From a virus, in IMG/VR virus record IMGVR_UViG_3300020579_000012, positions 4,946 to 68,945 of that record: a DNA stretch of 64,000 nucleotides; one strand, given 5' to 3'. A model generated the notes under the pieces. It saw only the letters and a program-made list of their open reading frames with translations. It had not been told where the DNA came from and made no database searches. The position numbers were made by a program, and so were the translations under genes. Below are positions 1 to 64,000 of the stretch, in pieces (the stretch's first letter is position 1; every line of letters starts with the position of its first letter).

Positions 1-538
1 ATCCAAAGTTTCCGCCGACGATCGCGAGCTTCGAGACGGCGGCCTTGCAGACTTCCATCTGCGGGCCCCTGGCCTTCTGAGGGATTAGGACTTGCGCCTC
101 CTCGAAAAATAGGACACGAGGGATCTCAGGTTTCGCCCGCATTAGGCGTCCAGCAAAAGCCGTCATGAAGTGTCGAATCGTCCCAAGCGACTCGAAGGCA
201 ATGTCAATCACAGCGCAGATCGGTGTCGCAAGAAGCGCTTCTGCGAGTCTCTCGCCGGAGTCCTTCTCGAACGGGATATCTCCGTATGTCCCGCCGATCA
301 CAGCAACATTCAGTTCACTTGGACTGCCGTCCGGCTTGACCCGAAGACCGTACAGATTGTTTGCCGGATCGGTCGCAATCCATGGGCGCCCCGCATACCA
401 GAGCTCCTCCAGGATCACACCTAGGCCGTAGGTCTTACCCTTCTTTGATTGAGCAAGCATCGCGAGCTTGACGTCGCTCAAATCTTCGGGTAGTCCGAAC
501 GGCTTTCCGCTCGGAATTAGCGTACCGATGTGCAACAT
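1..538 (-). CDS. P-loop NTPase, FtsK/HerA-superfamily-like (N-terminal part; C-terminus lies left of window)
   Basis: Not in ORF track. I checked codon by codon that the frame is open from ATG 536-538 (GGAGCAGAGG upstream) to position 1. Translation MLHIGTLIPSGKPF..AQSKKGKTYG (Walker A-like)..RVLFFEEAQVLIP (Walker B-like)..LAIVGGNFG. Confidence 0.6.
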   Translation of the reverse strand, partial: MLHIGTLIPSGKPFGLPEDLSDVKLAMLAQSKKGKTYGLGVILEELWYAGRPWIATDPANNLYGLRVKPDGSPSELNVAVIGGTYGDIPFEKDSGERLAEALLATPICAVIDIAFESLGTIRHFMTAFAGRLMRAKPEIPRVLFFEEAQVLIPQKARGPQMEVCKAAVSKLAIVGGNFG

Positions 539-1640: not shown

Positions 1641-1651
1641 CGTGTACACGG
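1640..1651. promoter_or_regulatory. GTGTACAC-core palindrome at a gene junction
   Basis: Minus strand: TGACCGTGTACACGATG (upstream stop, site, downstream start). Confidence 0.5.
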
Positions 1652-2843: not shown

Positions 2844-3131
2844 CTACTTTTCGAGAACCGCCAGGATTGCCCCTTCGATCAAGATCACATACTCCTGACC
2901 TTCGATCTTCACGTCTCCAATAAACTGCTCCGAGAAAAGGACCGTGTCCCCCTTCTTCACGCGAGGCTCAATCAGACGACCGGACTGAAACGCGCCTGGG
3001 CCGACGCCTTCCACGATACCACGATTCACCTTCTCCCGAGCCGCGTCAGGAATCAGAATGCCGCCGGGCGTCTTTTCGTCAGCCTTGAGTCTGCGGACAA
3101 CAATGTGGTCTGCCGTCGGGTTGATCTTCAT
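2844..3131 (-). CDS. groES: co-chaperonin GroES (Cpn10)
   Basis: Trimmed to ATG 3129-3131 (GGAGGA upstream). 95 aa: MKINPTADHIVVRRL..GGILIPDAAREKVNRGIVEGVGPG..GDTVLFSEQ..EYVILIEGAILAVLEK. Confidence 0.85.
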   Translation of the reverse strand: MKINPTADHIVVRRLKADEKTPGGILIPDAAREKVNRGIVEGVGPGAFQSGRLIEPRVKKGDTVLFSEQFIGDVKIEGQEYVILIEGAILAVLEK

Positions 3132-3196: not shown

Positions 3197-3844
3197 CTAC
3201 CAAGGAGGGGAGCCCCACCGGAACTCCATCCCCATAAGCATCACCTTCACGACGGACGGGCCCTTCAGGTTGACGAGTGGCATTTCCGCTTCGACGCGGA
3301 AGGACTCAGTCGAGTCCAGCTCGAGCGGCTCGCCTTTGTCGGAAACTACGCCCCTGGCATAGTGCGTCCAGATACCCTCCAGGTTGAACCTCTTCAGGCA
3401 GTCCCCGACCTGTTCGTTGAAGACGTTCCACTTGTTGACCTCGGTCTCGATCTTGTAAGCCTCGTCGATCGCGTGCATCGCCAGTCCATCGGTAACGTAC
3501 AGCACCGGAGAGAAGACCGACAGGGGACTCTCCTGCATTGTTACGTTGCCTCCGAAGATGAGCCGTAGCTTCAGATTTTTCAGGATCGTGAGAACATCGC
3601 TCTTGTCGTAGACCTGCTCGAGGGAGACGCCCCAGTAGTAGATCCGGAACGCCCTGGGAGTCCCGAGCATCCCGGAGCAGGTCATGTTCGTGTGAACTCC
3701 ACGCTCCTTCCACTCCCCATCGGGAAAGTGAAGGTTATCGAACAGGTTGACGCTCCCGTCTCCAAGCCCGTGCGACTTCAGTCGAAGCGTGTCGAAGAGG
3801 ACGTCTTTGTACCACTTCGCGTTGGGATGATAGTCTCTAGGCAT
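3197..3844 (-). CDS. beta-rich protein, paralog of the late-module protein 38992-39654 (capsid-like)
   Basis: Shares MLGTPRAFRIYYWG / SLGTPLSFDVFGYN, RLIFGGNVTM / QVVFGQDTTF and similar C-terminal strands with 38992-39654. Confidence 0.6.
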   Translation of the reverse strand: MPRDYHPNAKWYKDVLFDTLRLKSHGLGDGSVNLFDNLHFPDGEWKERGVHTNMTCSGMLGTPRAFRIYYWGVSLEQVYDKSDVLTILKNLKLRLIFGGNVTMQESPLSVFSPVLYVTDGLAMHAIDEAYKIETEVNKWNVFNEQVGDCLKRFNLEGIWTHYARGVVSDKGEPLELDSTESFRVEAEMPLVNLKGPSVVKVMLMGMEFRWGSPPW

Positions 3845-3862
3845 TCTTTACCTCTTCTGTGC
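3841..3862 (-). promoter_or_regulatory. 22-bp dyad motif copy
   Basis: GCACAGAAGAGGTAAAGAATGC; contains the ATG of 3197-3844. Confidence 0.5.
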
Positions 3863-4240
3863 CTACATCACTCTAGGCGGTTGAAGCATCTGCGTGTGGG
3901 CGAATCCGGGATATCTCCCGATTCGGGTCAATGATCTAGCCAGCTCAAACGCCTTTCTCGCTCTCTCGATCGCCGCCAATACTTCATCGCCAGTCGAGCA
4001 GATAACGAGCCTTGTCTCTGGAATGTGGGATCCGTCCAGTTCGCTCGCTACCTCTTCTTCGATCCTTCGCTTCAGATCGTCAGAAAGGTCTCCGGTCTCG
4101 ACCTTCTTAAATCTTCCCTGACCAGGAGCTTGACGACGAAAGTCCTGCTTTACGGGCTCGGTGAATCTGACGGCGAATACACCCGGCTTGTCGGTCGCCA
4201 GAATGGTTACGAACTCCAGATCTCTCATTTTATCCTCCAT
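3863..4240 (-). CDS. hypothetical protein (125 aa)
   Basis: Trimmed to ATG 4238-4240 (MEDKMRDLEF..). Confidence 0.55.
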   Translation of the reverse strand: MEDKMRDLEFVTILATDKPGVFAVRFTEPVKQDFRRQAPGQGRFKKVETGDLSDDLKRRIEEEVASELDGSHIPETRLVICSTGDEVLAAIERARKAFELARSLTRIGRYPGFAHTQMLQPPRVM

Positions 4241-4242
4241 TG

Positions 4243-4264
4243 GCACTCAATCTGCCTTTTGTGC
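4243..4264 (-). promoter_or_regulatory. 22-bp dyad motif copy
   Basis: GCACAAAAGGCAGATTGAGTGC, 2 nt before ATG 4240. Confidence 0.55.
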
Positions 4265-4414
4265 ATGACTACCGTTGGATCTGTGATTGCCGAATACCAT
4301 CTCGTGCGCCCAGTCGATGAAGAAACCGCCCGCTCTGTACCAACGGCGCTTCGCGTAGTCCAGCCAAGCGCGGTCGATAGCGTCGACCCATTCTTGCCGA
4401 CCCTCTGAAGTCAT
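4247..4414 (-). CDS. hypothetical protein (55 aa)
   Basis: Not in track. MTSEGRQEWVDAIDRAWLDYAKRRWYRAGGFFIDW..; ATGA overlap with the upstream gene. Confidence 0.4.
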   Translation of the reverse strand: MTSEGRQEWVDAIDRAWLDYAKRRWYRAGGFFIDWAHEMVFGNHRSNGSHAQKAD

Positions 4415-4608
4415 GAATCACGACTCCTTCTTGGCATCAGAGCAATAAATACGGATGGAAGGCCCATCAGAACTCCAAGTGCAAGAGCGTCGGGATTGTC
4501 CCGTACAGCGCCCTGGAGCCAAGTAAATAGAATCAAGCCGATCCCGATCCGCGCCAGAAGCGCGACGAGACAGCTTAGACCGAGCGGCTCTTCCGTATTC
4601 TCTTTCAC
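4411..4608 (-). CDS. small membrane protein (65 aa)
   Basis: Hydrophobic segments LSCLVALLARIGIGLILF and LGVLMGLPSVFIALM; GTG start with no clear SD. Confidence 0.5.
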   Translation of the reverse strand: MKENTEEPLGLSCLVALLARIGIGLILFTWLQGAVRDNPDALALGVLMGLPSVFIALMPRRSRDS

Positions 4609-4620
4609 GTTATAGCTATT

Positions 4621-4713
4621 TCAGCAATCGCAGCAGTAGCAGCAGCCTTCGCACCGCTCACAATGCTCCTCGGCCATCGCCCCGCACTCAGGACAAAGGA
4701 ATCGAATAATCAT
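4621..4713 (-). CDS. Cys-rich mini-protein (30 aa)
   Basis: Not in track. MIIRFLCPECGAMAEEHCERCEGCCYCCDC. Confidence 0.4.
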   Translation of the reverse strand: MIIRFLCPECGAMAEEHCERCEGCCYCCDC

Positions 4714-4726
4714 TGTGTTCTACCAT

Positions 4727-4748
4727 GCACTCAATTCGGCTTCTGTGC
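4727..4748 (-). promoter_or_regulatory. 22-bp dyad motif copy
   Basis: GCACAGAAGCCGAATTGAGTGC; spans the stop of 4731-4913. Confidence 0.55.
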
Positions 4749-4913
4749 CAACCCGTGTTTAGCGAGTAAGTGATCCTTAATGACCATAACGTCCAGAAAA
4801 TTCAACTCCTCACCGAGGAGGCCACGAGCCTCCATCCTTACTAAAATCGCACCGCAGACGGCACATCTGTAGCAGAACACACCGTCAACGAGGTCTTTAT
4901 TAATGGCTTCCAT
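4731..4913 (-). CDS. small zinc-ribbon-like protein (60 aa)
   Basis: Trimmed to ATG 4911-4913; contains ..FCYRCAVCGAIL.. Confidence 0.5.
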   Translation of the reverse strand: MEAINKDLVDGVFCYRCAVCGAILVRMEARGLLGEELNFLDVMVIKDHLLAKHGLAQKPN

Positions 4914-4923
4914 TTCTACAGTG

Positions 4924-4945
4924 GCACTCAATAGGTCTAGTGTGC
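4924..4945 (-). promoter_or_regulatory. 22-bp dyad motif copy
   Basis: GCACACTAGACCTATTGAGTGC; intergenic. Confidence 0.55.
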
Positions 4946-5119
4946 CTATCGCTTTCCGACCTTACTCTTCATGATTGAACCGAGAAGTTTCAGAGTTTCT
5001 TCAATTGTTGTTCGAACGGCTTCCTTCGACACGACGCGATCCTCATCGGTATCGTCGCACGTCCTGCTCTCAGTCCAGCTAACGATGAATCCACCATCTG
5101 CTGGTGAGACTCGAATCAT
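4946..5119 (-). CDS. hypothetical protein (57 aa; start uncertain)
   Basis: Trimmed to MIRVSPADGGF..; the upstream part of the track ORF overlaps the preceding gene. Confidence 0.4.
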   Translation of the reverse strand: MIRVSPADGGFIVSWTESRTCDDTDEDRVVSKEAVRTTIEETLKLLGSIMKSKVGKR

Positions 5120-5178
5120 GTTTGCAATGCGCAATGGATTTCTCCTAATGAAAAAAGTTCGCCTTCTCAAAATCACAG

Positions 5179-5634
5179 CTATCTCAACCACTGTCGAATT
5201 CCTAGATCTCGTTCCCACTCTACGGTCCACCTACCAAGCCTATCTGCCTCCGTTACAAGCAACTTCACGACTCGCTCAAGTTCAACCGCCATTGCATCGG
5301 CAGCTACCTGGGCAACTTTCGCACCCTTACCGTCACCACGCTTCTTACATCTGTTCGCGTCGTACTGAGCATTATTCCACTCGTTTTCAAGAGACAGGAA
5401 TAGACGCTCCAGAGATTCAAGGGAAACTTTCGGAGGGTTACTTAGACTTTTGGAGAGCCCCCTTCTAATCTCTGCGTATGTCCAAACGAGAGCCTTTGCG
5501 ATGGCTGCGTATGATTTTCTGGTGGCGTCGGCTATTTCAGGATACCGCGCAGACAAAAGCAGTCGATCTGCTGCATTGGAGAGCATTCTTGAGTAATGCC
5601 GGACATCGGAGTACAGGGATTTAGAGGTTCTCAT
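5179..5634 (-). CDS. hypothetical protein (151 aa)
   Basis: First ORF downstream of the sigma70-like promoter and leader at 5685-5793. Confidence 0.6.
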   Translation of the reverse strand: MRTSKSLYSDVRHYSRMLSNAADRLLLSARYPEIADATRKSYAAIAKALVWTYAEIRRGLSKSLSNPPKVSLESLERLFLSLENEWNNAQYDANRCKKRGDGKGAKVAQVAADAMAVELERVVKLLVTEADRLGRWTVEWERDLGIRQWLR

Positions 5635-5684
5635 AAAATTCTCAGAATCCTTCGAGCTGCGGCGAGTCCCATTGACGTGCTGAA

Positions 5685-5759
5685 CTGTCTAAGGTGCAGT
5701 ACGAGAGATAGGACGTCGCCGCAGTTCGTAAGACTCATATCGCACAGCACCTTAGACAG
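5685..5759 (-). other. long stem-loop at the 5' end of the predicted transcript (leader or small RNA)
   Basis: Perfect 13-nt arms CTGTCTAAGGTGC (5685-5697) and GCACCTTAGACAG (5747-5759) with a 49-nt loop; it begins about 5 nt after the -10 box. Confidence 0.5.
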
Positions 5760-5764
5760 CATTC

Positions 5765-5793
5765 AGTATAAGCACTGAACGTACCTCTGTCAA
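5765..5793 (-). promoter_or_regulatory. sigma70-type promoter TTGACA-17-TATACT
   Basis: On the minus strand: TTGACA (5793-5788), 17-nt spacer, TATACT (5770-5765). Confidence 0.65.
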
Positions 5794-5801
5794 GCTGTTC
5801 T

Positions 5802-5823
5802 GCACTCAACAATGCTTCTGTGC
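5802..5823 (-). promoter_or_regulatory. 22-bp dyad motif copy
   Basis: GCACAGAAGCATTGTTGAGTGC; 8 nt upstream of the TTGACA box of the 5765-5793 promoter. Confidence 0.55.
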
Positions 5824-6264
5824 TTACAGCCCGTCGTCCCAGACGCCACCCCACCGATCGCGACGATGACGTAGTTGAGCCTTGGTTATGCCTCTCCCTT
5901 TCTCGAGGAGCGTAACAGTTCCATGGGCCGGGATGCGAACGACCGCTGACGGCCATCCGGCCGTGAAGATCTCAAGACCGTCATCCATCGTCCGAACACC
6001 AAGCGCCAGGAGATCGATCGTCGACCCAATCGGACTCGTCTGCCGGAAGCTGTCACCGGCCTGGATTCTGTTTGGATGGTAATCCATCGGCAGGTAGCAC
6101 TCGCAGCTATTGATGGCGCATGAGCACTTCGCACGATCCTCGTACTCCCTCTGCGCCTTGATCTGGTCCGACAGGCGTAGGGCGGTCTCCTTACGCTTCG
6201 GCTCCTCCTGGAGGACATCCCGAACGAACGTCTCAAGATCTTCGTCGGTGATGAATCTGCTCAT
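5824..6264 (-). CDS. hypothetical protein (146 aa)
   Basis: GGGAGGGG SD before the ATG; ..CSCAINSCECY.. Confidence 0.6.
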   Translation of the reverse strand: MSRFITDEDLETFVRDVLQEEPKRKETALRLSDQIKAQREYEDRAKCSCAINSCECYLPMDYHPNRIQAGDSFRQTSPIGSTIDLLALGVRTMDDGLEIFTAGWPSAVVRIPAHGTVTLLEKGRGITKAQLRHRRDRWGGVWDDGL

Positions 6265-6277
6265 ATCCCCTCCCTAG

Positions 6278-6502
6278 CTACTTCCGGATCAGCAGGTAGA
6301 CGTCCCACTCGGCGCCAGCGCCGCCCTGTTCGCCGCCACAGCACATGGCGTCGGCCGCGATCCCGATGATCTCGCCACCGATCTTTCCGGCCTGGATCAG
6401 CGCGTTCGCCTTCGCCTCCTCGGCGCTCGCATGCGAGGTGCCGACCGCGACATCGTAGGTCCAGCGAGGCCACCAGAGCAGTTTCCTGAGCCACCAGAAC
6501 AT
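6278..6502 (-). CDS. hypothetical protein (74 aa)
   Basis: AGGAGG SD; MFWWLRKLLWWPRW.. Trp-rich N-terminus. Confidence 0.55.
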   Translation of the reverse strand: MFWWLRKLLWWPRWTYDVAVGTSHASAEEAKANALIQAGKIGGEIIGIAADAMCCGGEQGGAGAEWDVYLLIRK

Positions 6503-7541: not shown

Positions 7542-7882
7542 CGGTTCCTCCTCTCGATTCCTCGCCGGACGCGCTTCGCCTCGCGCTCGGCGCCGCGCTC
7601 CGTGTAAGGGCCAGTAATCTTTGTCGCCTCGAGATGCTTATCGAGGACAATCACGGAGAAGTAGCGAGGCTCCTTAAAGCGACAGGAACCATGCTTCCGC
7701 TCATCGTGCGGACAGACCAGCGGAACGACGACGACCGCGGCCGACTTGATCGCGGCCCGCATAAGCGGATCCCGGCGTTTCGTCTTCTGGAAACAACTAC
7801 GACATATCGGACCGAGCTTCTCGTTCTCAACGAGCAGAAGACACTCGCAGGAAAAGCAATAGGACTCCTCGACTTTTTTCAT
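7538..7882 (-). CDS. Cys-rich protein (114 aa)
   Basis: Trimmed to ATG 7880-7882 (ATGA overlap with the integrase stop); CFSCEC..CRSCF. Confidence 0.55.
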   Translation of the reverse strand: MKKVEESYCFSCECLLLVENEKLGPICRSCFQKTKRRDPLMRAAIKSAAVVVVPLVCPHDERKHGSCRFKEPRYFSVIVLDKHLEATKITGPYTERGAEREAKRVRRGIERRNR

Positions 7883-8664
7883 CTCCGAAGCTTCTCGAAA
7901 GTGTTTACGACCTTCTCTTCCCTTGTATGAACGTAGATCTTCGCCAACTCGATCGAAGACCAACGAAGTTGAGACCTAACGTAGTTAAAGTCAGCTCCAG
8001 CAGCGATTAGCCTACTGGCACGGGTATGTCGAAGGATATGGATCAGACCAAATCGGTCTGGCTTTACGATATCTAAAATCCTTTCGAAGATGCTCTGAAG
8101 CGTCCTCTTTGGAATCTTAAAAAGTAGATCATTCGGACCAAACTGCTTCACCCATGTACGCAACTCGTTCGTAAAATCGCTCTTATTGTCAAGATCGACT
8201 GGTAGAAGAGGGTGCCCTGACTTCTTAAGAGTTGGAATCCAAAGGCTCGAAAATGGACCTTTCTTCCAGTCGACGTATTTCGTACGCATTAGCAATGCTT
8301 CGCCACAGCGGCATCCAGTTTCAAGGATAAATCTGATCGTAATTCCAGCCGGATTCTCAATCTTCTTTGTTTCAGCAAGAACCTCCTTGTACTCCTCGTC
8401 GCTAAGATATTTAGTTGAGTCGATTACCGCGTTCGACGACGAAAGAGTTGAGCCCTTCGAATACTTCGATCTACAGCAACCTTCTAAGCATGTGATGAAC
8501 TTGTCACGACGCCCAGCAGACTTCATTATTTTCTGTTTACAGACGTGATTTGGTGATGTGCAGACCTTCGCTCGATCTCCGATATTGTACCGGGCCATGA
8601 ATGATTTCCCACAAATGAAGCAGGTCGAAGGAATCCGGTACTCTGACTTTTCCTTTTTTTTCAT
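7879..8664 (-). CDS. tyrosine recombinase / phage integrase family, with an N-terminal Cys-rich region
   Basis: TGCRCGEALLMR (Arg box), HILRHTRAS (HxxR), LRWSSIELAKIYVHT (catalytic Tyr). Confidence 0.85.
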   Translation of the reverse strand: MKKKEKSEYRIPSTCFICGKSFMARYNIGDRAKVCTSPNHVCKQKIMKSAGRRDKFITCLEGCCRSKYSKGSTLSSSNAVIDSTKYLSDEEYKEVLAETKKIENPAGITIRFILETGCRCGEALLMRTKYVDWKKGPFSSLWIPTLKKSGHPLLPVDLDNKSDFTNELRTWVKQFGPNDLLFKIPKRTLQSIFERILDIVKPDRFGLIHILRHTRASRLIAAGADFNYVRSQLRWSSIELAKIYVHTREEKVVNTFEKLRR

Positions 8665-9314
8665 TTTTTGTGCTCTCGAACGTAGAAGCCGTAATCCTGT
8701 CGCTTCCCGTCGATGTAGGCAAGCTTTGCACAGGCAAGATTGACACAGTAGTTAAAGGAGACTTGATCTCGCTTCGATCCTGACGAAATCTCATCCCACC
8801 AGAGCTCGTTGAAGCGTCGGACCGTATCGTTGTGCCTCCGGATTAGGATATTCGTCTCTCCTAAACCTGCCGCTGCTGGGTATCCGGCCTTTCTTAGTTT
8901 TGTCAAATGATTGACCATCACCAACGGATCTTCCTTCCCTGCGAGAACCGCCGCATTGCCGCCGATATAAACGCAGTCGATTGTCTGGTGACGAAAGAGC
9001 GCAATGTCGTTGTCCGATGTGTACTTCTCAACGAGCGCGCGCAGATCTACGTCGACAGCGTCGATCGCACCGTCTATCCAAACAACGAGTCGATAGTCTT
9101 GTACTGGACTGGCGTGGGACATGACCTTATATAGCCTCGCGTTGCGCGTCAAATCCTTGAGTACAGTCGGAAGGATAACCACCTTCGCCCGGCTCGGCAC
9201 CCTCTTTGGGTAGGAATCCGTAAGAAAAAATACGTCGATATCTTCCCCGAATTCCGGCTCGACGTACGGATCATAATCTCCAAAAATCCCAGTGTACACG
9301 GCAATTTTTTCCAT
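8661..9314 (-). CDS. DUF616-type glycosyltransferase-like protein
   Basis: IAVYTGIFGDYD..VFFLTD..VVWIDGAI..SKRDQVSFNY matches the DUF616 layout as I remember it. Confidence 0.7.
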   Translation of the reverse strand: MEKIAVYTGIFGDYDPYVEPEFGEDIDVFFLTDSYPKRVPSRAKVVILPTVLKDLTRNARLYKVMSHASPVQDYRLVVWIDGAIDAVDVDLRALVEKYTSDNDIALFRHQTIDCVYIGGNAAVLAGKEDPLVMVNHLTKLRKAGYPAAAGLGETNILIRRHNDTVRRFNELWWDEISSGSKRDQVSFNYCVNLACAKLAYIDGKRQDYGFYVREHKK

Positions 9315-11468: not shown

Positions 11469-11690
11469 TCATGGCTTTATATATCCGCTGGAAGTATTTG
11501 CGCTTTTCGATGCCAGAATAAGCATCAGGTCGCGGTCATAGCTGAGAACCTGCTCGGCCAAGTCCTGGAGTAGGATCAACTCCAGGATCTCGGCATCCGT
11601 CATTGGGTCGTTCGTCTCCCACTTCTTGAGGATGAGTTCCTGGCGACGGTCGTTCGCCGCGTCCCACCATTTCAACTTCACCGTTGTCAT
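11469..11690 (-). CDS. hypothetical protein (73 aa)
   Basis: ORF track. Confidence 0.5.
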   Translation of the reverse strand: MTTVKLKWWDAANDRRQELILKKWETNDPMTDAEILELILLQDLAEQVLSYDRDLMLILASKSANTSSGYIKP

Positions 11691-11855
11691 CTACGCCTCC
11701 ACCCATTTCCCGTTCTCGCATCTCCGCTTCAGGTGCCCGGCCTCGTCCCGAGGTTCCGTCATCGGCTTCGGGTTCGACTTCCTGCCTTTGGTGGCCCAGA
11801 AATAGACATGGATCACATTTCCGATCCACCACTTAACAGGGTTCATGAATGTCAT
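11691..11855 (-). CDS. hypothetical protein (54 aa)
   Basis: Not in track. MTFMNPVKWWIGNVIHVYFWATKGRKSNPKP..; ATGA overlap upstream and TAGATG junction downstream. Confidence 0.4.
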   Translation of the reverse strand: MTFMNPVKWWIGNVIHVYFWATKGRKSNPKPMTEPRDEAGHLKRRCENGKWVEA

Positions 11856-13618: not shown

Positions 13619-14161
13619 TCAAGACTCTCCCCTCATCGTCTCTTCGTTCAGCTTCTTGACACTGATCTCTCCGCGCGCGAGCTGGCCGAGAAGATCTCCG
13701 CCATGCCGTACACCGTCGTCACGCTGACTCCTCAAGGCCGCCCGCACCGCTAAGTCTAGGCGATCGATCACCTTCCCGGTCGCTGCCGGACCCTTATAGA
13801 CCAGCGCCTTTTCGTAGAACGTGGTGTAGTAGGTTCGCCCACGGGTCTCCGTAGGAAGCGGAGAAACGTCTTTAGCGTAGGCGTCCCGATGAGACTTCGA
13901 CGGAGTCAAAACTCGTCTAGTCAATGCCTGAAACGCCTCAACCATCTCCTTCCTAATCTCGTCATCACGAACGAAGAAGTGGGGCCAGTCTGGAACGAGC
14001 CGGAATAGAGCCTCTTCTTTACTCTCCTCTTTGTGGTCTGCGTCCATCTTGACGGCCCTGCCGAGCGAGAGAAGTTTCGCGCATTCGTCGCAAAGACGAT
14101 CAGCATAGCGCCAACCCTTCTTTCCGCAACCGTGGCAGGGCTTATAAGTTCCGCCGCTCAT
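13619..14161 (-). CDS. hypothetical protein with N-terminal zinc ribbon (180 aa)
   Basis: Trimmed to ATG 14159-14161 (GGAG SD); CHGCGKKGW..CDEC. Confidence 0.6.
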   Translation of the reverse strand: MSGGTYKPCHGCGKKGWRYADRLCDECAKLLSLGRAVKMDADHKEESKEEALFRLVPDWPHFFVRDDEIRKEMVEAFQALTRRVLTPSKSHRDAYAKDVSPLPTETRGRTYYTTFYEKALVYKGPAATGKVIDRLDLAVRAALRSQRDDGVRHGGDLLGQLARGEISVKKLNEETMRGES

Positions 14162-14168
14162 AAAGTCT

Positions 14169-14180
14169 CCGTGTACACGA
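14169..14180. promoter_or_regulatory. GTGTACAC-core palindrome at a gene junction
   Basis: Minus strand: TGATCGTGTACACGGAGACTTTATG. Confidence 0.5.
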
Positions 14181-14252
14181 TCACTTCGCCTTGGAATGCT
14201 CACGGACCTTGACGAGAATCTTCTCGAGGCTCTCTGGCGTCGTCCGAATCAT
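14181..14252 (-). CDS. possible 23-aa peptide
   Basis: Not in track. MIRTTPESLEKILVKVREHSKAK; its stop directly abuts the palindrome site at 14169-14180. Confidence 0.2.
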   Translation of the reverse strand: MIRTTPESLEKILVKVREHSKAK

Positions 14253-16614: not shown

Positions 16615-17139
16615 TTATTTTTTTTTTTTTGAAATACGTCTATTCAACTGTTGCTGAATTCCGGTTGCCCAACGGATGTTGCCGGGTTCGTAGTTCCCGT
16701 TATTTTCGATCCTATCGATCGATACTTTAGAGGAAGGCTTCCTTCCGATCTCATTAACTAAGTCGTTAAAGAAATCATAAAAAGACCTCCTCCAGCGAGC
16801 ACATACAGATATGCCGCGGCCTCCGTAGTTTTTGAAATTTGTGTGGTTTTTATTATGGCACCTCTGAATCATTGCTTCCCAAGTTTGGTACTCAGGTTTG
16901 AATTCAGGTTTTCTAGACATTCCGTGAGTTCTATTTAAGAAACGCTCATCTCGAATACATCCGCAAGATCTCGTTGGATGCCCAGACCTTGAAAGTGAAC
17001 TTCCGTTCACATCAACTATCTTTCCGCAAAGGCATTTACATCTAAATCTTCTATCTCTGTTTCTGCCTTTAACGCCTATAAATTTAAGGACAGTTAATCT
17101 CCCAAATTTCTCTCTGACAGAAACGGATGCCGGTCTCAT
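16615..17139 (-). mobile_element. free-standing HNH homing-endonuclease-like gene
   Basis: FGRLTVLKF..CKCLCGK..SCGC..YGGRGISVCARW..SIDRIENNGNYEPGNIRWAT; visibly more AT-rich than its flanks; ends in an A14 run (KKKK). Confidence 0.8.
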
Positions 17140-17150
17140 CCTTTAAGTCT

Positions 17151-17933
17151 CTACTTTACAGAGGTAATCGAAAAAGATGAGACCTTCCAAGCACCGCCAG
17201 CAGCGACTACGAACAGGCGTCCGGATATCGAGACCTTAACGGCCGGGTGCAATGACGCCTGCTTCCAGTCAACGTGATTCTTCGAGAAGTCTTTTCCATC
17301 CAGCTGCACGATCAGTGCTTCCCGGCGAACCATCAGCTTGACTGTTCTTGGTTTCCCTGACTTGAAGACACACCCATTCGCGTGCTCGCCCTCGCCTCCG
17401 CCGACAAGCGCGAGGCAGCTCTTCGTGCCGTCGTAGCAGTCGAAGTGGAAGGCGCAGAGACCGCCAGGAACGACGATGCCGACGTCGAAGTCCTTGTTTC
17501 CGGAGTCTCCGCGCTCGACGATGAGCGTCAGATCATACTCCTCAGGAAGAGGGCCGTAGTCAAACATCAGCGGTGCGCGCGTCGGCCAGGAGGCCGTTCC
17601 TACGAGGGTTCGTCCGACGAGCTTCCAGCCTTCGGCTTTCTGAACGTCCGCCTTCAAGAGCAGGTCGGTCGTCGCGGTCTGTTTTGTGGGGAAGGATATC
17701 GACGCCCCGGTCAGCGGTCCTGCAGCAGGAGCGGCTGGGTCCTCAGACGGTACCGACAAACGCTCGACGTCTGCCTTGCGGACGCTGACGGTCCGACCGT
17801 CCTTTGTTTGGATAGAGTAGTTATCTCCGTCATCGGAGAGCGACTTCCAGGCGAGGCGCTTCCCGTCCCGGAGGAGCATCTCGTCGGCGGAACATGGGAG
17901 TGCTAACAGGAACGCGATCACAAAGAACCGCAT
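17151..17933 (-). CDS. secreted protein with signal peptide
   Basis: MRFFVIAFLLALPCSADE; beta-rich C-terminal domain. Confidence 0.7.
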   Translation of the reverse strand: MRFFVIAFLLALPCSADEMLLRDGKRLAWKSLSDDGDNYSIQTKDGRTVSVRKADVERLSVPSEDPAAPAAGPLTGASISFPTKQTATTDLLLKADVQKAEGWKLVGRTLVGTASWPTRAPLMFDYGPLPEEYDLTLIVERGDSGNKDFDVGIVVPGGLCAFHFDCYDGTKSCLALVGGGEGEHANGCVFKSGKPRTVKLMVRREALIVQLDGKDFSKNHVDWKQASLHPAVKVSISGRLFVVAAGGAWKVSSFSITSVK

Positions 17934-17940
17934 AACGACC

Positions 17941-18075
17941 TCACTTTCTCTTTAGGACGTCCCAATACGGTGTTTTGCACTTGCCACATCTACGTGGATG
18001 AGGGTCTTTGGAATGCCAGACACAGCCCTTCCGTAGACACTTGTGCTCGTACAGCCTGATCGTGATTCTCATCAT
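17941..18075 (-). CDS. zinc-ribbon mini-protein (44 aa), probably translated from a leaderless or near-leaderless mRNA
   Basis: Not in track. MMRITIRLYEHKCLRKGCVWHSKDPHPRRCGKCKTPYWDVLKRK; the ATG lies about 9 nt after the -10 box. Confidence 0.45.
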   Translation of the reverse strand: MMRITIRLYEHKCLRKGCVWHSKDPHPRRCGKCKTPYWDVLKRK

Positions 18076-18083
18076 GCACCGTC

Positions 18084-18130
18084 AGTGTACACCATCAGTG
18101 TACACTTGTCAATGTAAAATCACTGTACAC
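18084..18130 (-). promoter_or_regulatory. sigma70-type promoter overlapped by three GTGTACAC-type palindromes
   Basis: Minus strand: GGTGTACAGTGATTTTACATTGACAAGTGTACACTGATGGTGTACACT. -35 TTGACA (18112-18107), 17-nt spacer, -10 TACACT (18089-18084); palindromes at 18085-18092, 18098-18105 and 18123-18130 (one mismatch). Confidence 0.65.
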
Positions 18131-18857
18131 CCATTTTCGAATAGACCGGATGCTTCCGGACATCCGCGCGCTCCTGGTCGGTCATGTCGTGCCACTGCTT
18201 CCAGCGACCCTCACGGACCTCGCGCCAGACACCGAATGCGGTGTCGTACTCGACCTTCTGGTCGAGCTCCTTCTTCTCGATCGCCTCAGCGGTCGAGGCG
18301 CTTCCGCGATGCCAGATCGGACAAGAGTGGACACGAACTGATCGGAGACAGAACGAATGCAGCGCACGGTGGATCGCATCCGAGTCAGACATGTAGAAGC
18401 GCATCCGCTCGTCGACCCCTCGCAACTTGTTCCAATAGTCTCGGCGAATCGCCGCAACGTAAAACTGGAGTTGGTCGGTCGTCAGACGGTCGTCGATCTG
18501 ACGCTCATCGGAGATCTCACGCATAGCCTGTCGTGACGGCATCGGCTCCGAAGTCGGCGACGACCCGAACGGATCAGGCGTCGCGAAGGCAAGATCCGGA
18601 TTCCGGTCGATCGCTTCGACGAGACGAAGGTCCCAGTCCGGACAAAGTGCAATGTCTGGGTTCATGATAACAATATAATCACCGCGTCCAGCCGCCGCGA
18701 GATCGTTCCAGAGTCTCGAGAGCGTCTTCGAATTACGACTGTTGTCAAAGTAATGGACTGCGGTTTTACAGGCGCTCATATTCGAGATGTCCTGACGGAG
18801 TCTTGGTAGGTACATGTCGGATCGGTACCCGACTAGAACAATGTCAACTTTCCTCAT
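18120..18857 (-). CDS. glycosyltransferase family 2-like protein
   Basis: Trimmed to ATG 18855-18857; ..DYIVIMNPDIALCPDW..LRGVDERMRFYMSDSDAIHRA. Confidence 0.6.
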   Translation of the reverse strand: MRKVDIVLVGYRSDMYLPRLRQDISNMSACKTAVHYFDNSRNSKTLSRLWNDLAAAGRGDYIVIMNPDIALCPDWDLRLVEAIDRNPDLAFATPDPFGSSPTSEPMPSRQAMREISDERQIDDRLTTDQLQFYVAAIRRDYWNKLRGVDERMRFYMSDSDAIHRALHSFCLRSVRVHSCPIWHRGSASTAEAIEKKELDQKVEYDTAFGVWREVREGRWKQWHDMTDQERADVRKHPVYSKMGVQ

Positions 18858-19462: not shown

Positions 19463-21177
19463 GGCTGTACCTCGATCAATCTGTTTGTAATAAGTTCTGC
19501 GGTAATATCCCATGTCATCCGACTCATCCGCACCTGTAGTCGTTCCGTTCGCTCACGAACCTCTCGACCTCCGGAGTGGACAGTTCTGATAAGCTCAGCG
19601 AGGGCACGCCGGGCTCTGGCACCATAGCGCGGCCAGTCCATGTCGACGTACCACGGAGAAACGGACTCCGCTTCCGGACACTTCGATATACCGTCTTTCT
19701 CAAACATCCAGGCATCCTCCCCGAGAACGTCTGGATTCGCACTGTTCCTAGGAACGATGATAGGCTTACCGCAGGCCGCCCCTTCGTGGGATGGGAGCCC
19801 CCAGCCTTCACCAAGACTAGCCGATACGATAGCGTCCGACGACGAGTAGATCTCTGCCATCTGCGTATCCGTGAACTTCCCTTCAAGGATCCAGACGCGC
19901 GTCTTCAGATTTGCGAGCTTGTCGTGAATCCTAGACGACCAAGATCCAGGAGCGTGCGTCGTTGCGATCACGAAGTCGACGTCGGATTTCTTCGGAAACG
20001 CCAGTTCGATCGCCTCCGCGATAAACTCAAAATTCTTCCGGCGGGAAGGTAGTCCGACCGCCAGTGCAATCCAGCCGGACGGGGATCTGTAGTTTCCTCT
20101 TTTCGAGGTCGAGACGAGACGGCATTCAGGGAATGCTATTTTCTTCAAAGGTTTGAAAATTGCTGGATTTATTCCGAGCGGAACCACTCTTGTCGGGATC
20201 CGGACGCCGGAACCGACAAAGGCGCTCTTCCCCCAGTTCGTACACGTCCATAATTCCGAGTACCGAGAATTGATCTTCTCAACCATATCTCGGTGTACAC
20301 GATCAGTCTCCATTAGCGTGTAGCAGATCGAGAATCGATCTTTCTGCGGCTCGTGATCTGGCCCAAAAATCCTTAGGATCGGCGCTTTCGGGCCTATCAA
20401 CGTCGACTGGAATGATTCGACTTTAGTTCTTGTGTACTCGTCAACGAGTATCGCCTCCTTGGAATCTGATTCGATCCGAACAGCCAAACTATTTGCTATC
20501 CGGAATAGGATCTCGCGATTAAGGCGACCGTATGATGCCCAGGATAGGAAGTGTCCTGACTGCAGAACCTCAGGAAAATTAGACTTTTTGTAGACATGCT
20601 TTAGAGCTGTAGATTCAACCGGCTTAGGTTTAGGAGGTTCATAGGTAACAGCTGGAAGCGACTGAACGCTTCCGAACCGCACGACCGCGTCGGATTCCGG
20701 GATGAACGACTCGGCGTGCCAGCGCCATGTCGGCGGCAGGAACAGGAAGGAGGTCTCCCGCGTCTCGGTCAGGGCGATACAGAGATTAACGTCCTCCTTG
20801 CCTGGATACGCGGCGTTCCGCTGGACCCAGCGGTCGAGTAGGCGCCGAGCACCCGTCGTCGGCCGGACGAGGATCGTCTCGAGCGAGACTACTCCGATCC
20901 CGTCGAACTGCCGAGGGGTCGTCGGCGTCGAGCCGATCCGGTCGACGTAGGCTGCGACGTCGAAGTCCTTCGAGCGCAGCCGCTCCAAGACCGGTGCGGT
21001 CCAGACGCGGGCCCCAGGCTGGACGAACAGGAACCCGTCCCGCTCGATCGTGAAGCGGCCGAGTGCGTCCAGGAACGCGTCAGCCGGGGACGGCCCGCGT
21101 GCGAGCGCGCAGATCGTGATGCCTTTCACGTGACCGACGAGCGGCGACGGGGCACCCTTGAAGGTGACGACGATCAT
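19459..21177 (-). CDS. two-domain glycosyltransferase (unknown N-terminal domain plus GT1/GT4-type C-terminal domain)
   Basis: ..SASLGEGWGLPSHEGAACGKPIIVPRNSANPDVLGE.. Confidence 0.8.
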   Translation of the reverse strand: MIVVTFKGAPSPLVGHVKGITICALARGPSPADAFLDALGRFTIERDGFLFVQPGARVWTAPVLERLRSKDFDVAAYVDRIGSTPTTPRQFDGIGVVSLETILVRPTTGARRLLDRWVQRNAAYPGKEDVNLCIALTETRETSFLFLPPTWRWHAESFIPESDAVVRFGSVQSLPAVTYEPPKPKPVESTALKHVYKKSNFPEVLQSGHFLSWASYGRLNREILFRIANSLAVRIESDSKEAILVDEYTRTKVESFQSTLIGPKAPILRIFGPDHEPQKDRFSICYTLMETDRVHRDMVEKINSRYSELWTCTNWGKSAFVGSGVRIPTRVVPLGINPAIFKPLKKIAFPECRLVSTSKRGNYRSPSGWIALAVGLPSRRKNFEFIAEAIELAFPKKSDVDFVIATTHAPGSWSSRIHDKLANLKTRVWILEGKFTDTQMAEIYSSSDAIVSASLGEGWGLPSHEGAACGKPIIVPRNSANPDVLGEDAWMFEKDGISKCPEAESVSPWYVDMDWPRYGARARRALAELIRTVHSGGREVRERTERLQVRMSRMTWDITAELITNRLIEVQP

Positions 21178-21965: not shown

Positions 21966-21977
21966 TCGTGTACACGA
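21966..21977. promoter_or_regulatory. GTGTACAC-core palindrome at a gene junction (perfect 12-mer)
   Basis: Minus strand: TGATCGTGTACACGAGGAGGTGTGATATG. Confidence 0.5.
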
Positions 21978-31790: not shown

Positions 31791-31802
31791 CCGTGTACAC
31801 GG
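31791..31802. promoter_or_regulatory. GTGTACAC-core palindrome at a gene junction (perfect 12-mer, + strand operon)
   Basis: TGAACTGACCGTGTACACGGAGAATTTTCGAGATG. Confidence 0.5.
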
Positions 31803-56139: not shown

Positions 56140-56538
56140 GTGACCAGAGTCGAAGTCCTCTTCGATCTCATCCGGACACAGGCGTCGCTCCGGTTCCCCT
56201 GGATCGCCCAGGTCAAGGTGAAGTTCTGTCCGATGGCCGACCGGGATCACGGGATGAAATGGCGCCAGTTCGCCCATACAAATCATCGCGTGTACACGGT
56301 CTGTTTCGCGAAGGCGGCCGAGATCGAACTCTTCGACGAGGAGGTCCTCGGGATGTCGGCGCACGAGCTGGGGCATATCGTCGGGAAGCGTCTTCGATAC
56401 CCGGAGCACTCGCGGCCGACGACGACGAAGAGGACCCCCAAGGCCGTCCAGGACGAGGCCGACAGGATCGCCCAGGAGGTCCTTGGGTTCGACGGCCTTC
56501 ACTACAACCACCGGACGCTCCAGGAGCTTAGAGGATAG
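56140..56538 (+). CDS. small HEXXH metallopeptidase-like protein
   Basis: ..GMSAHELGHIVGK.. Confidence 0.6.
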   Translation: MTRVEVLFDLIRTQASLRFPWIAQVKVKFCPMADRDHGMKWRQFAHTNHRVYTVCFAKAAEIELFDEEVLGMSAHELGHIVGKRLRYPEHSRPTTTKRTPKAVQDEADRIAQEVLGFDGLHYNHRTLQELRG

Positions 56539-62500: not shown

Positions 62501-62803
62501 TCAGAGTTTGAAGTCAGGCTCCCCGTATAGCATTCGTCGGATCCGAGCGACCTCCGCAACGGTAACGCTCCGGACGACAGACAGCGTCTTGATGTGGCCT
62601 TCTCTCGGAAACAGAGTCTCAAGTGTCCGGCGCATCGTTCCTTTACCAGCCACCCTCGGCTTGTAGCCTAGCTCCTTCGCTTTGTCGAAAACGAGCTTGA
62701 TCGTGTCCTTCCTGAAAACTGGTCCGCTGACCTGATTTAAGATCTTATTCACTGTCGAAACGTCGAGCCCGACCGCCGCTGCGATCTCTACCTGGGTGGT
62801 CAT
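62501..62803 (-). CDS. stand-alone LacI/GalR-type HTH DNA-binding protein (100 aa)
   Basis: Trimmed to ATG 62801-62803 (GAAGGAG SD); MTTQVEIAAAVGLDVSTVNKILNQ. Confidence 0.6.
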   Translation of the reverse strand: MTTQVEIAAAVGLDVSTVNKILNQVSGPVFRKDTIKLVFDKAKELGYKPRVAGKGTMRRTLETLFPREGHIKTLSVVRSVTVAEVARIRRMLYGEPDFKL

Positions 62804-63281: not shown

Positions 63282-64000
63282 CTACGACTTCACCGCGAAC
63301 GTCGCCACCATGCGCGAATGCCACTCCTCAGCCCATTCCAGCGCGAGCTTGGCAGCGGCATTCTTCTTCGGGGTGTCGCCGGGATTGATGGCCGTGAAGA
63401 ACGCCTCTGCTGGGCGATGGCTGTTTGGTGTCAGTCCAGGGATCTCCGCGTAGTTGCACTTCCTGGCGTTGGCGATGGTACCCACCAGACACGCGCATTC
63501 GCCTTCGTAGGTCGATCCGTTGACTTTGCCATCCTTGAGCGCCTGGATCAGCGCGGGAACCTCAGCCGGGGCCGCCGAAAGGACGGCCCAGAAGTCGTCG
63601 CGGATGGGCGTCAGGTCGGCATCGCGCAGGTCGGCACCGCGCAGGTCGGCACCGCGCAGGTCGGCACCGCGCAGGTCGGCACCGCGCAGGTCGGCATCGC
63701 GCAGGTCGGCATCGCGCAGGAAGGCACCGCGCAGGACGGCACCGCGCAGGTCGGCATCGCGCAGGTCGGCATCGCGCAGGTCGGCATCGCGCAGGACGGC
63801 ACCGGGCAGGACGGCACCGGGCAGGACGGCACCGCGCAGGTCGGCACCGCGCAGGAAGGCACCGCGCAGGTCGGCACCGCGCAGGAAGGCACCGGGCAGG
63901 ACGGCACCGCGCAGGTCGGCACCGCGCAGGTCGGCACCGCGCAGGTCGGCACCGCGCAGGTCGGCACCGCGCAGGTCGGCACCGCGCAGGTCGGCACCGC
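63282..64000 (-). CDS. pentapeptide-repeat protein (N-terminus beyond the right edge) with a ~110-aa non-repeat C-terminal domain
   Basis: I checked the frame (codon starts divisible by 3): it is open from 64000 to the stop at 63282. It reads ..(RGADL)n, [66 protein letters not shown]... The track shows only the last 67 aa and a wrong-frame PTCAV ORF. Confidence 0.8.
63612..64000. repeat. tandem 15-nt repeat, about 26 units, continuing off the window
   Basis: Unit CAGGTCGGCACCGCG with a few variants (GTC/GAC/GAA, ACC/ATC, GCG/GGG). Confidence 0.95.

Follow-up and report, generated by a model that had tools for sequence, protein, structure and literature searches.

We have analyzed a candidate promoter on the minus strand of a 64,000-nt stretch of viral DNA (part of IMG/VR record IMGVR_UViG_3300020579_000012; the whole stretch is referred to here as the window). 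The promoter, at positions 18070-18130, precedes a small zinc-ribbon open reading frame (ORF) of 44 aa, and two copies of the palindromic 8-mer GTGTACAC, designated boxes O1 and O2, cover its -10 hexamer and part of its spacer. The reading that we favour, with a probability of about one half, is that this is an internal, near-leaderless promoter repressed through the two boxes as dyad operators, probably by its own zinc-ribbon product. A promoter of the sigma-70 type would start transcription at, or within about 2 nt of, the zinc-ribbon ATG and give a leaderless mRNA, which would probably run on into the gene for a secreted protein and the genes beyond it. A dimeric, sequence-specific protein would bind the two GTGTACAC dyads in the spacer and at the -10 hexamer and, when bound, exclude RNA polymerase. 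If that protein is the product of the first gene, promoter and gene would together make a negatively autoregulated unit, and the description that probably fits the element best is that of a self-contained promoter-operator-zinc-ribbon cassette within a long phage operon. An earlier note on this DNA, made from the letters alone, had proposed a repressor-controlled phage immunity or early switch at this place; its interpretation is partly supported, in that the promoter looks regulated and near-leaderless and carries two operator-like dyads, but it does not appear to be a switch of the immunity type.

The anatomy of the promoter is compact. Read on the minus strand, the -35 hexamer TTGACA (18107..18112) is followed by a 17-nt spacer, AGTGTACACTGATGGTG (18106-18090), and the -10 hexamer TACACT (18084..18089); the two hexamers match the consensus at 10 of 12 positions. 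Eight nucleotides, GACGGTGC, then lead to the ATGATG that opens the zinc-ribbon ORF (17941..18075, minus strand). The string TTGACA/TACACT/ATGATG is present exactly as the earlier note quoted it, and the geometry that it described holds with a distance from -10 to ATG of 8 nt rather than about 9. Since the ATG lies 8 nt past the -10 hexamer and no Shine-Dalgarno sequence precedes it, the mRNA is expected to be leaderless or to have a leader of at most 2 nt, the start site being predicted from the position of the hexamers. Upstream, the promoter abuts a GT2 glycosyltransferase gene on the same strand (18120..18857), whose 3' end reads ...ATG GGT GTA CAG TGA with the TGA at 18122-18120; the sequence TTTTACA separates this TGA from TTGACA. 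Because the stop codon lies only 7 nt before the -35 hexamer, transcripts reading through from the glycosyltransferase gene would cross the boxes.

Promoters of this quality are rare in the window. Only five sites in the 64 kb, this one included, have no more than two mismatches to TTGACA-16..18-TATAAT; it is also one of three minus-strand sites that combine a perfect TTGACA with at most two mismatches overall, and the second best match in 19.5 kb. The other two near-consensus minus-strand promoters (5793-5765 and 29121-29094) have the form TTGACA-16/17-TGc-TATACT and neither contains GTGTACAC; the one at 29.1 kb, probably the principal early promoter, lies in the 550-bp region from which the two gene blocks diverge.

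The same arrangement is conserved in relatives of this phage, which were found through the primase and the secreted protein and are recurrent contigs of 65-72 kb. Six of these (L003, L004, L012, L019, L020 and L021) have TTGAC(A/G)-16/17-TAnnnT upstream of the zinc-ribbon ORF, with the -35 hexamer in the same place. The ATG follows 6-9 nt past the -10 hexamer in L004 (TTGACA-16-TATAAT-8-ATG), L012 (TTGACA-16-TATCAT-6-ATG), L019 (TTGACG-17-TACACT-8-ATG), L020 (TTGACA-16-TAAACT-8-ATG) and L021 (TTGACA-16-TATCAT-9-ATG); the exception is L003, where TTGACA-17-TACCAT is followed by a 31-nt leader with a Shine-Dalgarno sequence. The arrangement also extends beyond the relatives. In an unbiased sample of 79 IMG/VR homologues of the zinc ribbon, 16 have a near-consensus promoter whose -10 hexamer, mostly TATACT, ends 4-10 nt (mode 7) before an in-frame start, against 8 of 1556 random ATGs (0.5%) in the same loci. 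A leaderless consensus promoter is thus a hallmark of this gene family, and the canonical promoter with a (near-)leaderless zinc-ribbon ORF that the earlier note had described very probably is a functional sigma-70-type promoter with a leaderless start.

Box O2 (18098..18105) lies in the spacer, where it forms the centre of the 10-bp palindrome AGTGTACACT, and box O1 (18085..18092) overlaps the -10 hexamer; their centres are 13 bp apart. The two perfect palindromes, which the earlier note had placed correctly, are far from what chance would give. Exact GTGTACAC occurs nine times in the 64 kb, compared with 0.38 expected from dinucleotide shuffles and 0.32 from a second-order Markov model, and it is by far the most over-represented 8-bp palindrome of the window. 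Two copies 13 bp apart inside a rare near-consensus promoter are far beyond chance. One-mismatch copies are not enriched (8 of these, making 17 at no more than one mismatch against 11.4 expected). A literature search on the 8-mer returned no relevant match.

The boxes are kept where the surrounding sequence is not. L019, the closest diverged relative, has a secreted protein 76% identical to that of the window and is about 80% identical in the adjacent coding DNA; its intergenic sequence reads TGA-atttcc-TTGACG-tg-GTGTACAC-cacg-GTGTACACT-agacaggt-ATG. Both boxes (O2 at all 8 of its positions), the -10 hexamer and five of the six bases of the -35 hexamer are retained, the surrounding and intervening bases differ, and the box centres are 12 rather than 13 bp apart. 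Equivalents of O2 in the spacer are found in L026, L130 (GTGCACAC) and L268 (GTGCGCAC), and O1 is kept in L019, L026, L130, L131, L227, L236, L251, L256, L274 and L287. More distant members of the phage group have other dyads in the same promoter: ATACGTAT in L004, aTGTACAa in L012, and AGTGCTAT-CATA-ATAGCACT, spanning the -10 hexamer and the start, in L021. We consider it reasonably probable that the two boxes are operators for a protein. The stretch from the -10 hexamer to the start (18070-18083) reads (c/t)GGTGC-ATG in several box-bearing promoters (L130, L256 and L274), GTGCATG itself being found in only 3 of 38 members of the zinc-ribbon subfamily described below; in the window this stretch makes a degenerate third unit of the 13-bp periodicity (GTGTACACTGATG / GTGTACACTGACG / GTGCATGATGAGA).

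The third site proposed by the earlier note fared less well. A one-mismatch copy, GTGTACAG, does lie 10 nt upstream of the -35 hexamer (18123..18130), where it overlaps the last codons and the stop of the GT2 gene. Since the one-mismatch class occurs at chance frequency, this site lacks statistical support of its own; the corresponding position in L019 reads GTGGTCGC and is not conserved. Only L236 offers a precedent, an exact box placed 9 nt ahead of the -35 hexamer, and the site is a doubtful operator.

The strongest link between the boxes and the gene is their association with one subfamily of zinc ribbons. The family pattern is C..C...C.KC.[ST]PYW, and the subfamilies are distinguished by the second knuckle, C-[G/A]-K-C or C-P-K-C. 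Two scans of IMG/VR with family alignments gave 135 non-redundant upstream regions. In the C-[G/A]-K-C class, to which the window, L019, L026, L130 and L131 belong, 8 of 38 regions have an exact box and 15 of 38 have one at no more than one mismatch; the corresponding figures for C-P-K-C are 0 of 91 and 1 of 91 (Fisher p = 3e-5 and 1.3e-8), and background windows have 0.2% and 2.1%. A first sample of the family, drawn from the C-P-K-C class, likewise had the box in 0 of 80, so that the association is specific to the subfamily and not family-wide. The box-bearing members have diverse protein sequences and come from DNA of 50-60% GC. TACACT as -10 hexamer also recurs in C-[G/A]-K-C promoters.

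The box recurs, with unchanged placement in the promoter, before homologous zinc-ribbon genes in unrelated phages (L026, L130, L131, L227, L287 and others). A protein-blind pattern search of IMG/VR for TTGAC-N2-4-box-N3-6-box found seven contigs in four unrelated lineages of 33-56% GC. Among three randomly sampled homologues the box covers the -10 hexamer in two, L130 (TTGACT-a-GTGCACAC-ttcg-GTGTACACT-7-ATG) and L131 (TTGACA-17-(GTG)TACACT-6-ATG); L133 has none. In L026/L027, phages that otherwise share only an HNH domain with the window, a box pair at 12-bp spacing within longer palindromes stands directly before a 58-aa zinc-ribbon homologue that has a Shine-Dalgarno sequence. At a distance of 1.6 kb, L026 encodes a second paralogue, whose promoter has other dyads, ACTGTTACAGT and CTACTGCACAGTAG, in the same positions. 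This covariation of the dyad with the protein encoded just downstream is the signature of an autoregulator and places the zinc-ribbon product first among the possible binders. The L026 region (3301-6468, minus strand) holds two modules in tandem, each made up of a promoter with dyads, a zinc ribbon of 58 aa and an HNH endonuclease; in both, the zinc-ribbon ORF is overlapped by a long ORF in a different frame. In L023 a box pair lies upstream of a leaderless 140-aa ORF ending in a zinc ribbon; here (11674-11740, minus strand; 37% GC) four GTGTACAC-like boxes surround a TTGACT promoter and a terminase small-subunit gene adjoins.

A paired box does not by itself announce a zinc-ribbon gene. The idea that GTGTACAC-N3-6-GTGTACAC generally precedes such genes was rejected, as a zinc-ribbon ORF was found at only L026/L027 and L023 among 107 IMG/VR stretches with the pair. 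Per gap length these stretches are roughly as frequent as chance would predict, except for one TTA/TAA-repeat family. A low-GC phage family (L034, L057, L064, L077 and about 36 other IMG/VR loci) carries three to four tandem 11-bp repeats, TTAGTGTACAC (TTTACACTTAGTGTACACTTAGTGTACACTTGTGTACAC), which are built from the GTGTACAC 8-mer and form iteron- or operator-like arrays.

The 44-aa protein has the Cys knuckles CLRKGC and CGKC, the first of which is atypical (C-x4-C), and carries RCGKCKTPYW. It shows the features of its family: two Cys knuckles, a W-x-P-R-like strand, K-C-K-[ST]-P-Y-W and a length of 40-60 aa. A hidden Markov model of the family finds it at E=2e-16 as the sole member in the window. 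The family comprises 2284 homologues, which are standalone zinc ribbons of 40-99 aa with the consensus C.RCGH.W.PR...P..CPKCKSPYW; no curated family or known function was found for it in Pfam or PHROGs. The AlphaFold2 model is confident but shows a generic zinc-ribbon hairpin (predicted local distance difference test score 87.9), and a fold search with it gave no significant match (E=1.1 for PF0610). The best solved relative of the family profile is the PF0610 zinc ribbon of Pyrococcus furiosus (PDB 2gmg, E=0.005), and weak PDB sequence matches include archaeal ribosome-associated zinc-ribbon RNA-binding proteins (E about 0.02-0.05). The Joint Genome Institute label of some homologues, 'predicted Zn-ribbon and HTH transcriptional regulator' (HTH, helix-turn-helix), derives from PF0610.

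Beyond the promoter, the window has seven further exact copies of GTGTACAC, a genome-wide motif that the earlier note had missed. Four of them are located at gene junctions next to Shine-Dalgarno sequences and three within coding sequence. The junctions share one layout: a stop codon (or a retained TGA), 2 nt (YC), GTGTACAC, a G, the Shine-Dalgarno sequence and the ATG. In each case CGTGTACACG, a palindrome of 10 bp, forms the core, and AACTGAYC invariably flanks it upstream, as seen in the direction of the gene, on either strand. On the minus strand are the copies at 21968..21975 (TGA-tc-GTGTACAC-GAGGAGG-ATG), whose orthologous site is L004:13339 with different flanks, at 14171..14178 (TGA-tc-GTGTACAC-GGAGACTTT-ATG), found as the same 26-nt cassette before a different gene at L020:11344, and at 1642..1649 (TGA-cc-GTGTACAC-g-ATG), orthologous to L020:19429. 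The plus-strand copy at 31793..31800 (TGAcc-GTGTACAC-GGAG...ATG) is orthologous to L004:2383. Orthologous junction copies persist despite diverged flanks in L006 and L008 as well. The 26-nt string GTGATCGTGTACACGGAGACTTTATG (motif, Shine-Dalgarno sequence, spacer and ATG) is identical at 14153-14183 and L020:11335-11363, before non-homologous genes, has near-identical versions at L021:12127 and L008:920, and looks like an exchangeable junction cassette.

The three coding copies are more varied. One lies in the GT1 glycosyltransferase gene (20293..20300, minus strand), in the frame T-D-R-V-H and with the full CTGATC flank, and the same codons are used at L012:15509 and L293:13489. This copy falls where the N-terminal part of the gene product gives way to the GT1 domain, and an in-frame ATG lies 6 nt further on. 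A relative with only 54% primase identity retains it, and L004 has the same residues in other codons. Another (56290..56297) is in a plus-strand HExxH gene (56140-56538) near the convergence of two gene blocks. This gene is a 132-aa ORF with the metallopeptidase-like motif SAHELGH and closes the plus-strand block; the flank of its copy points antisense, 240 nt past the end of the converging minus-strand block. The third copy, in N-terminal codons (A-V-Y-T) of a TOD1/MUCI70-like glycosyltransferase gene (9292..9299), may be fortuitous.

On the simplest reading of the junction copies, a protein bound between genes would act as a stoperator-like roadblock. A role as promoters was rejected: these copies lack a -35 hexamer, could offer only TACACG as -10 hexamer and run straight into a Shine-Dalgarno sequence that looks functional. 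Partition sites, or promoters for a phage RNA polymerase or sigma factor, were also considered and set aside; no ParA/ParB, RNA polymerase or sigma family was among the hits listed.

Several observations weigh against repression by the zinc-ribbon product. The most serious is that L004, L020 and L021 have a C-P-K-C zinc ribbon and a boxless promoter, yet carry two to three junction copies per 20 kb (about 20 of the 70 kb of these genomes was covered); the factor that recognises GTGTACAC may therefore not be the C-[G/A]-K-C zinc ribbon. DNA binding by mini zinc ribbons is unsupported by Pfam and PHROGs, which give nothing, or by the PDB, where the resemblance is to zinc ribbons in general. The association of box and subfamily could reflect a co-inherited cassette and not direct recognition. 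In the window the box centres are 13 bp apart, but in L019, L026 and L130 only 12 bp. Finally, part of O1 may be promoter sequence, since a GTG stands before ordinary -10 hexamers as well (GTGTATAAT in L004 and L265), the C-[G/A]-K-C subfamily has GTG before the -10 hexamer even where this is TATAAT or TATACT, and in L217, L218, L220 and L221 GTGnTACACT reads as a canonical extended -10. This last objection fails for the spacer box of the window, L019, L026, L130 and L268, for the upstream box of L236 and for the dispersed copies. With these points taken into account, we name the zinc-ribbon product as the binder of the boxes only tentatively, while ranking it above any other single candidate.

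The foremost alternative is that the boxes are operators for another phage or host regulator, such as an antitoxin of the Phd/YefM type, which would also act on the junction copies and for which the zinc ribbon would be mere cargo. The persistence of junction copies in phages with the other zinc-ribbon class and a boxless promoter fits this explanation, as does the match of L019, L026 and L130 to the geometry of the YefM-YoeB operator, and an unassigned HTH-like 100-aa ORF at 62501-62803 could supply a regulator. Against an antitoxin, neither a Phd/YefM homologue nor YoeB was found in the window by phmmer or among the Pfam and NCBIfam families listed for 100 predicted proteins, and the window has a 13-bp spacing, not 12; a host factor would leave unexplained why the box tracks one zinc-ribbon subfamily through phages of 35-61% GC. 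An ORF in L023 that has a Phd-like look is not recognised as Phd by Pfam. On balance we regard a different regulator as improbable, though it is the rival to be taken most seriously.

Still less probable is that there is no regulator at all. On this view, GTG plus TACACT would be a variant of the -10 region peculiar to the lineage, the second copy would have arisen by duplication, and any importance of the pair would lie in a hairpin formed in read-through RNA. The GTG directly before the -10 hexamer in many subfamily promoters, including those with TATAAT or TATACT (L004, L235 and L265), and the extended -10 form in L217, L218, L220 and L221 are what this explanation predicts, and the box pair can indeed form a hairpin of -13.2 kcal/mol. 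That hairpin, however, is unexceptional against shuffled sequences (z=-1.76) and does not need the palindromic arms. The spacer box, which has no sigma-70 role, is nevertheless kept in L019, L026, L130 and L268, the L236 box lies upstream of the -35 hexamer, and the 8-mer is about 28-fold over-represented genome-wide, away from promoters.

We think it unlikely, too, that the motif acts in RNA, with GUGUACAC beside ribosome-binding sites as the target of a translational regulator or a processing nuclease and with the promoter copies of consequence only in read-through transcripts of the upstream glycosyltransferase genes. The fixed order at the junctions (stop, 2 nt, motif, Shine-Dalgarno sequence, ATG), with the flank always upstream of the gene, suits such a role; so do the distance of 9 nt from O1 to the ATG, which the 14171 cassette shares, and the weak structure matches to archaeal zinc-ribbon RNA-binding ribosome proteins. 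The fixed placement, however, is equally expected where intergenic spacers are very short, the 56290 copy is antisense within a gene, and the boxes of unrelated phages lie upstream of the predicted start and would therefore be missing from the mRNA of the gene itself.

The classic lysogeny (immunity) switch that the earlier note had in mind, a prophage repressor acting on an early lytic promoter through three operators, can be largely discounted: operators do overlap the -35/-10 region, there is a tyrosine recombinase gene (7879-8664) and the motif is dispersed in the manner of Cluster A mycobacteriophage stoperators (PMC9283540), but the promoter is internal to a long co-directional block with no divergent partner promoter and no adjacent HTH repressor gene (none within several kb), the third operator is not conserved, the promoter-gene unit is present in many unrelated phages, no integrated copy was found in genomes and the relatives are recurrent free contigs.

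The window is part of a 68,456-bp metagenomic contig (Logan SRR7101043) with phage-like gene content, including a D5/P4-type primase-helicase, a DinG-like helicase, several glycosyltransferases, the tyrosine recombinase and GroES. A long plus-strand block without family matches presumably encodes the structural proteins. Megablast of 20 kb of the window against the INPHARED phages gave no match, and searches of PHROGs and Pfam were equally negative for the zinc ribbon, the structural genes and the neighbours of the junction copies. According to a gene map based on codon usage, the promoter lies within a run of minus-strand genes, all in one direction, that spans about 28 kb (from about 28.8 kb to 0.6 kb). 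The second gene of the unit (17151..17933, minus strand) encodes a 260-aa protein with a signal-peptide-like N-terminus and has its own Shine-Dalgarno sequence; 67 homologues of this secreted protein but no Pfam family were found. The 'HNH gene' (16615-17139), two genes downstream of the zinc ribbon, gave no match in a Pfam search. As the genes are co-directional and terminator prediction finds no site that stands out downstream of the promoter, a transcript extending into the secreted-protein gene and the genes beyond is plausible. A scan of genome contigs with the primase, made with the host in view, gave no match. The same scan with the secreted protein found one 41-kb contig, a distant relative binned in an uncultured Planctomycetales metagenome-assembled genome, and this single binned contig is a weak hint that Planctomycetales are the host.

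Other features of the window were noted in passing. A phage-encoded GroES/Cpn10 co-chaperonin lies at 2844-3131 on the minus strand (Pfam E=2.6e-24), its ORF having been assigned from the sequence (MKINPTADHIVVRR...). A pentapeptide-repeat protein, (G-A-D-L-R)n, is encoded at 63611-64000 on the minus strand by about 26 tandem 15-bp repeats and runs past the window end; the pentapeptide-repeat fold is that of DNA-mimic proteins such as Qnr and MfpA. The 12-mer AAGAAGAAGGAG has five copies in the window (546, 7271, 14316, 28888 and 50688), of which some at least encode K-K-K-E near protein N-termini or sit at ribosome-binding sites.

If repression by the zinc-ribbon product holds in the window, it may be asked how far it extends. 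It is conceivable, but on present evidence rather doubtful, that standalone zinc ribbons of 40-60 aa, with more than 2000 homologues, are sequence-specific binders of double-stranded DNA and among the smallest repressors, that they pass from phage to phage as self-contained cassettes of consensus promoter, dyad operators and leaderless gene, and that in the present phage lineage the protein also occupies the single GTGTACAC copies that separate stop codons from ribosome-binding sites, as a genome-wide system of transcriptional roadblocks or pacing. The compact leaderless expression cassette recurs across phages of very different base composition and could serve as a portable, self-limiting promoter. 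The junction copies suggest that long phage operons are controlled at a second level, in a way reminiscent of stoperators but based on a palindrome.

The closest known counterpart of the box pair is the YefM-YoeB operator, defined by experiment, in which paired palindromes with TGTACA cores 12 bp apart cover the -10 hexamer (Kedzierska et al. 2007, PMC1802561), an arrangement common upstream of yefM-yoeB in diverse genomes (PMC1802561). Here too, two adjacent TGTACA-core palindromes lie over the -10 hexamer, with centres 12 bp apart in L019, L026 and L130, the sequence between the boxes is free to vary, and the first gene product is proposed to repress its own promoter. The differences are that the first gene is a 40-60-aa zinc ribbon, with no Phd/YefM antitoxin or YoeB toxin gene found, that the spacing in the window is 13 bp, that the core is extended to GTGTACAC and that the motif is also present at gene junctions. 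In Cluster A mycobacteriophages the stoperators are 13 bp long and asymmetric, and the immunity repressor that binds them and blocks elongation is a monomer with two domains (PMC9283540). They share with the present motif the use of one short sequence at a promoter and at many genomic sites, mostly in short intergenic gaps and co-oriented with transcription. Unlike stoperators, the core in the window is a perfect 8-10-bp palindrome with far fewer sites, seven outside the promoter, and no immunity repressor was found.

At the protein level, PF0610 (PDB 2gmg) is a winged helix with an embedded rubredoxin-like zinc ribbon, whereas the phage proteins consist of a zinc ribbon and a basic tail without a winged helix. 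The PRM/cI system of lambda has operators that overlap with the promoter hexamers, a small regulator whose mRNA lacks a leader, and scope for negative autoregulation. The present element differs in having no divergent PR/PRM pair, no HTH repressor and no third conserved operator, and in being followed by co-directional cargo genes. The mobile promoter cassettes of T4-type phages (PeSL) are short regulatory cassettes at gene boundaries that flank exchangeable genes. The junction copies, unlike PeSL, adjoin a Shine-Dalgarno sequence and are without promoter hexamers or a stem-loop; like PeSL, the identical 26-nt GTGATCGTGTACACGGAGACTTTATG stands before different genes in the window and L020. Promoter occlusion by dyad operators is textbook regulation and the kind of logic seen here is thus a known one; the likely regulator, with its thousands of members in phage metagenomes, is not, and what is new is this probable regulator family together with the copies of the motif at gene junctions.

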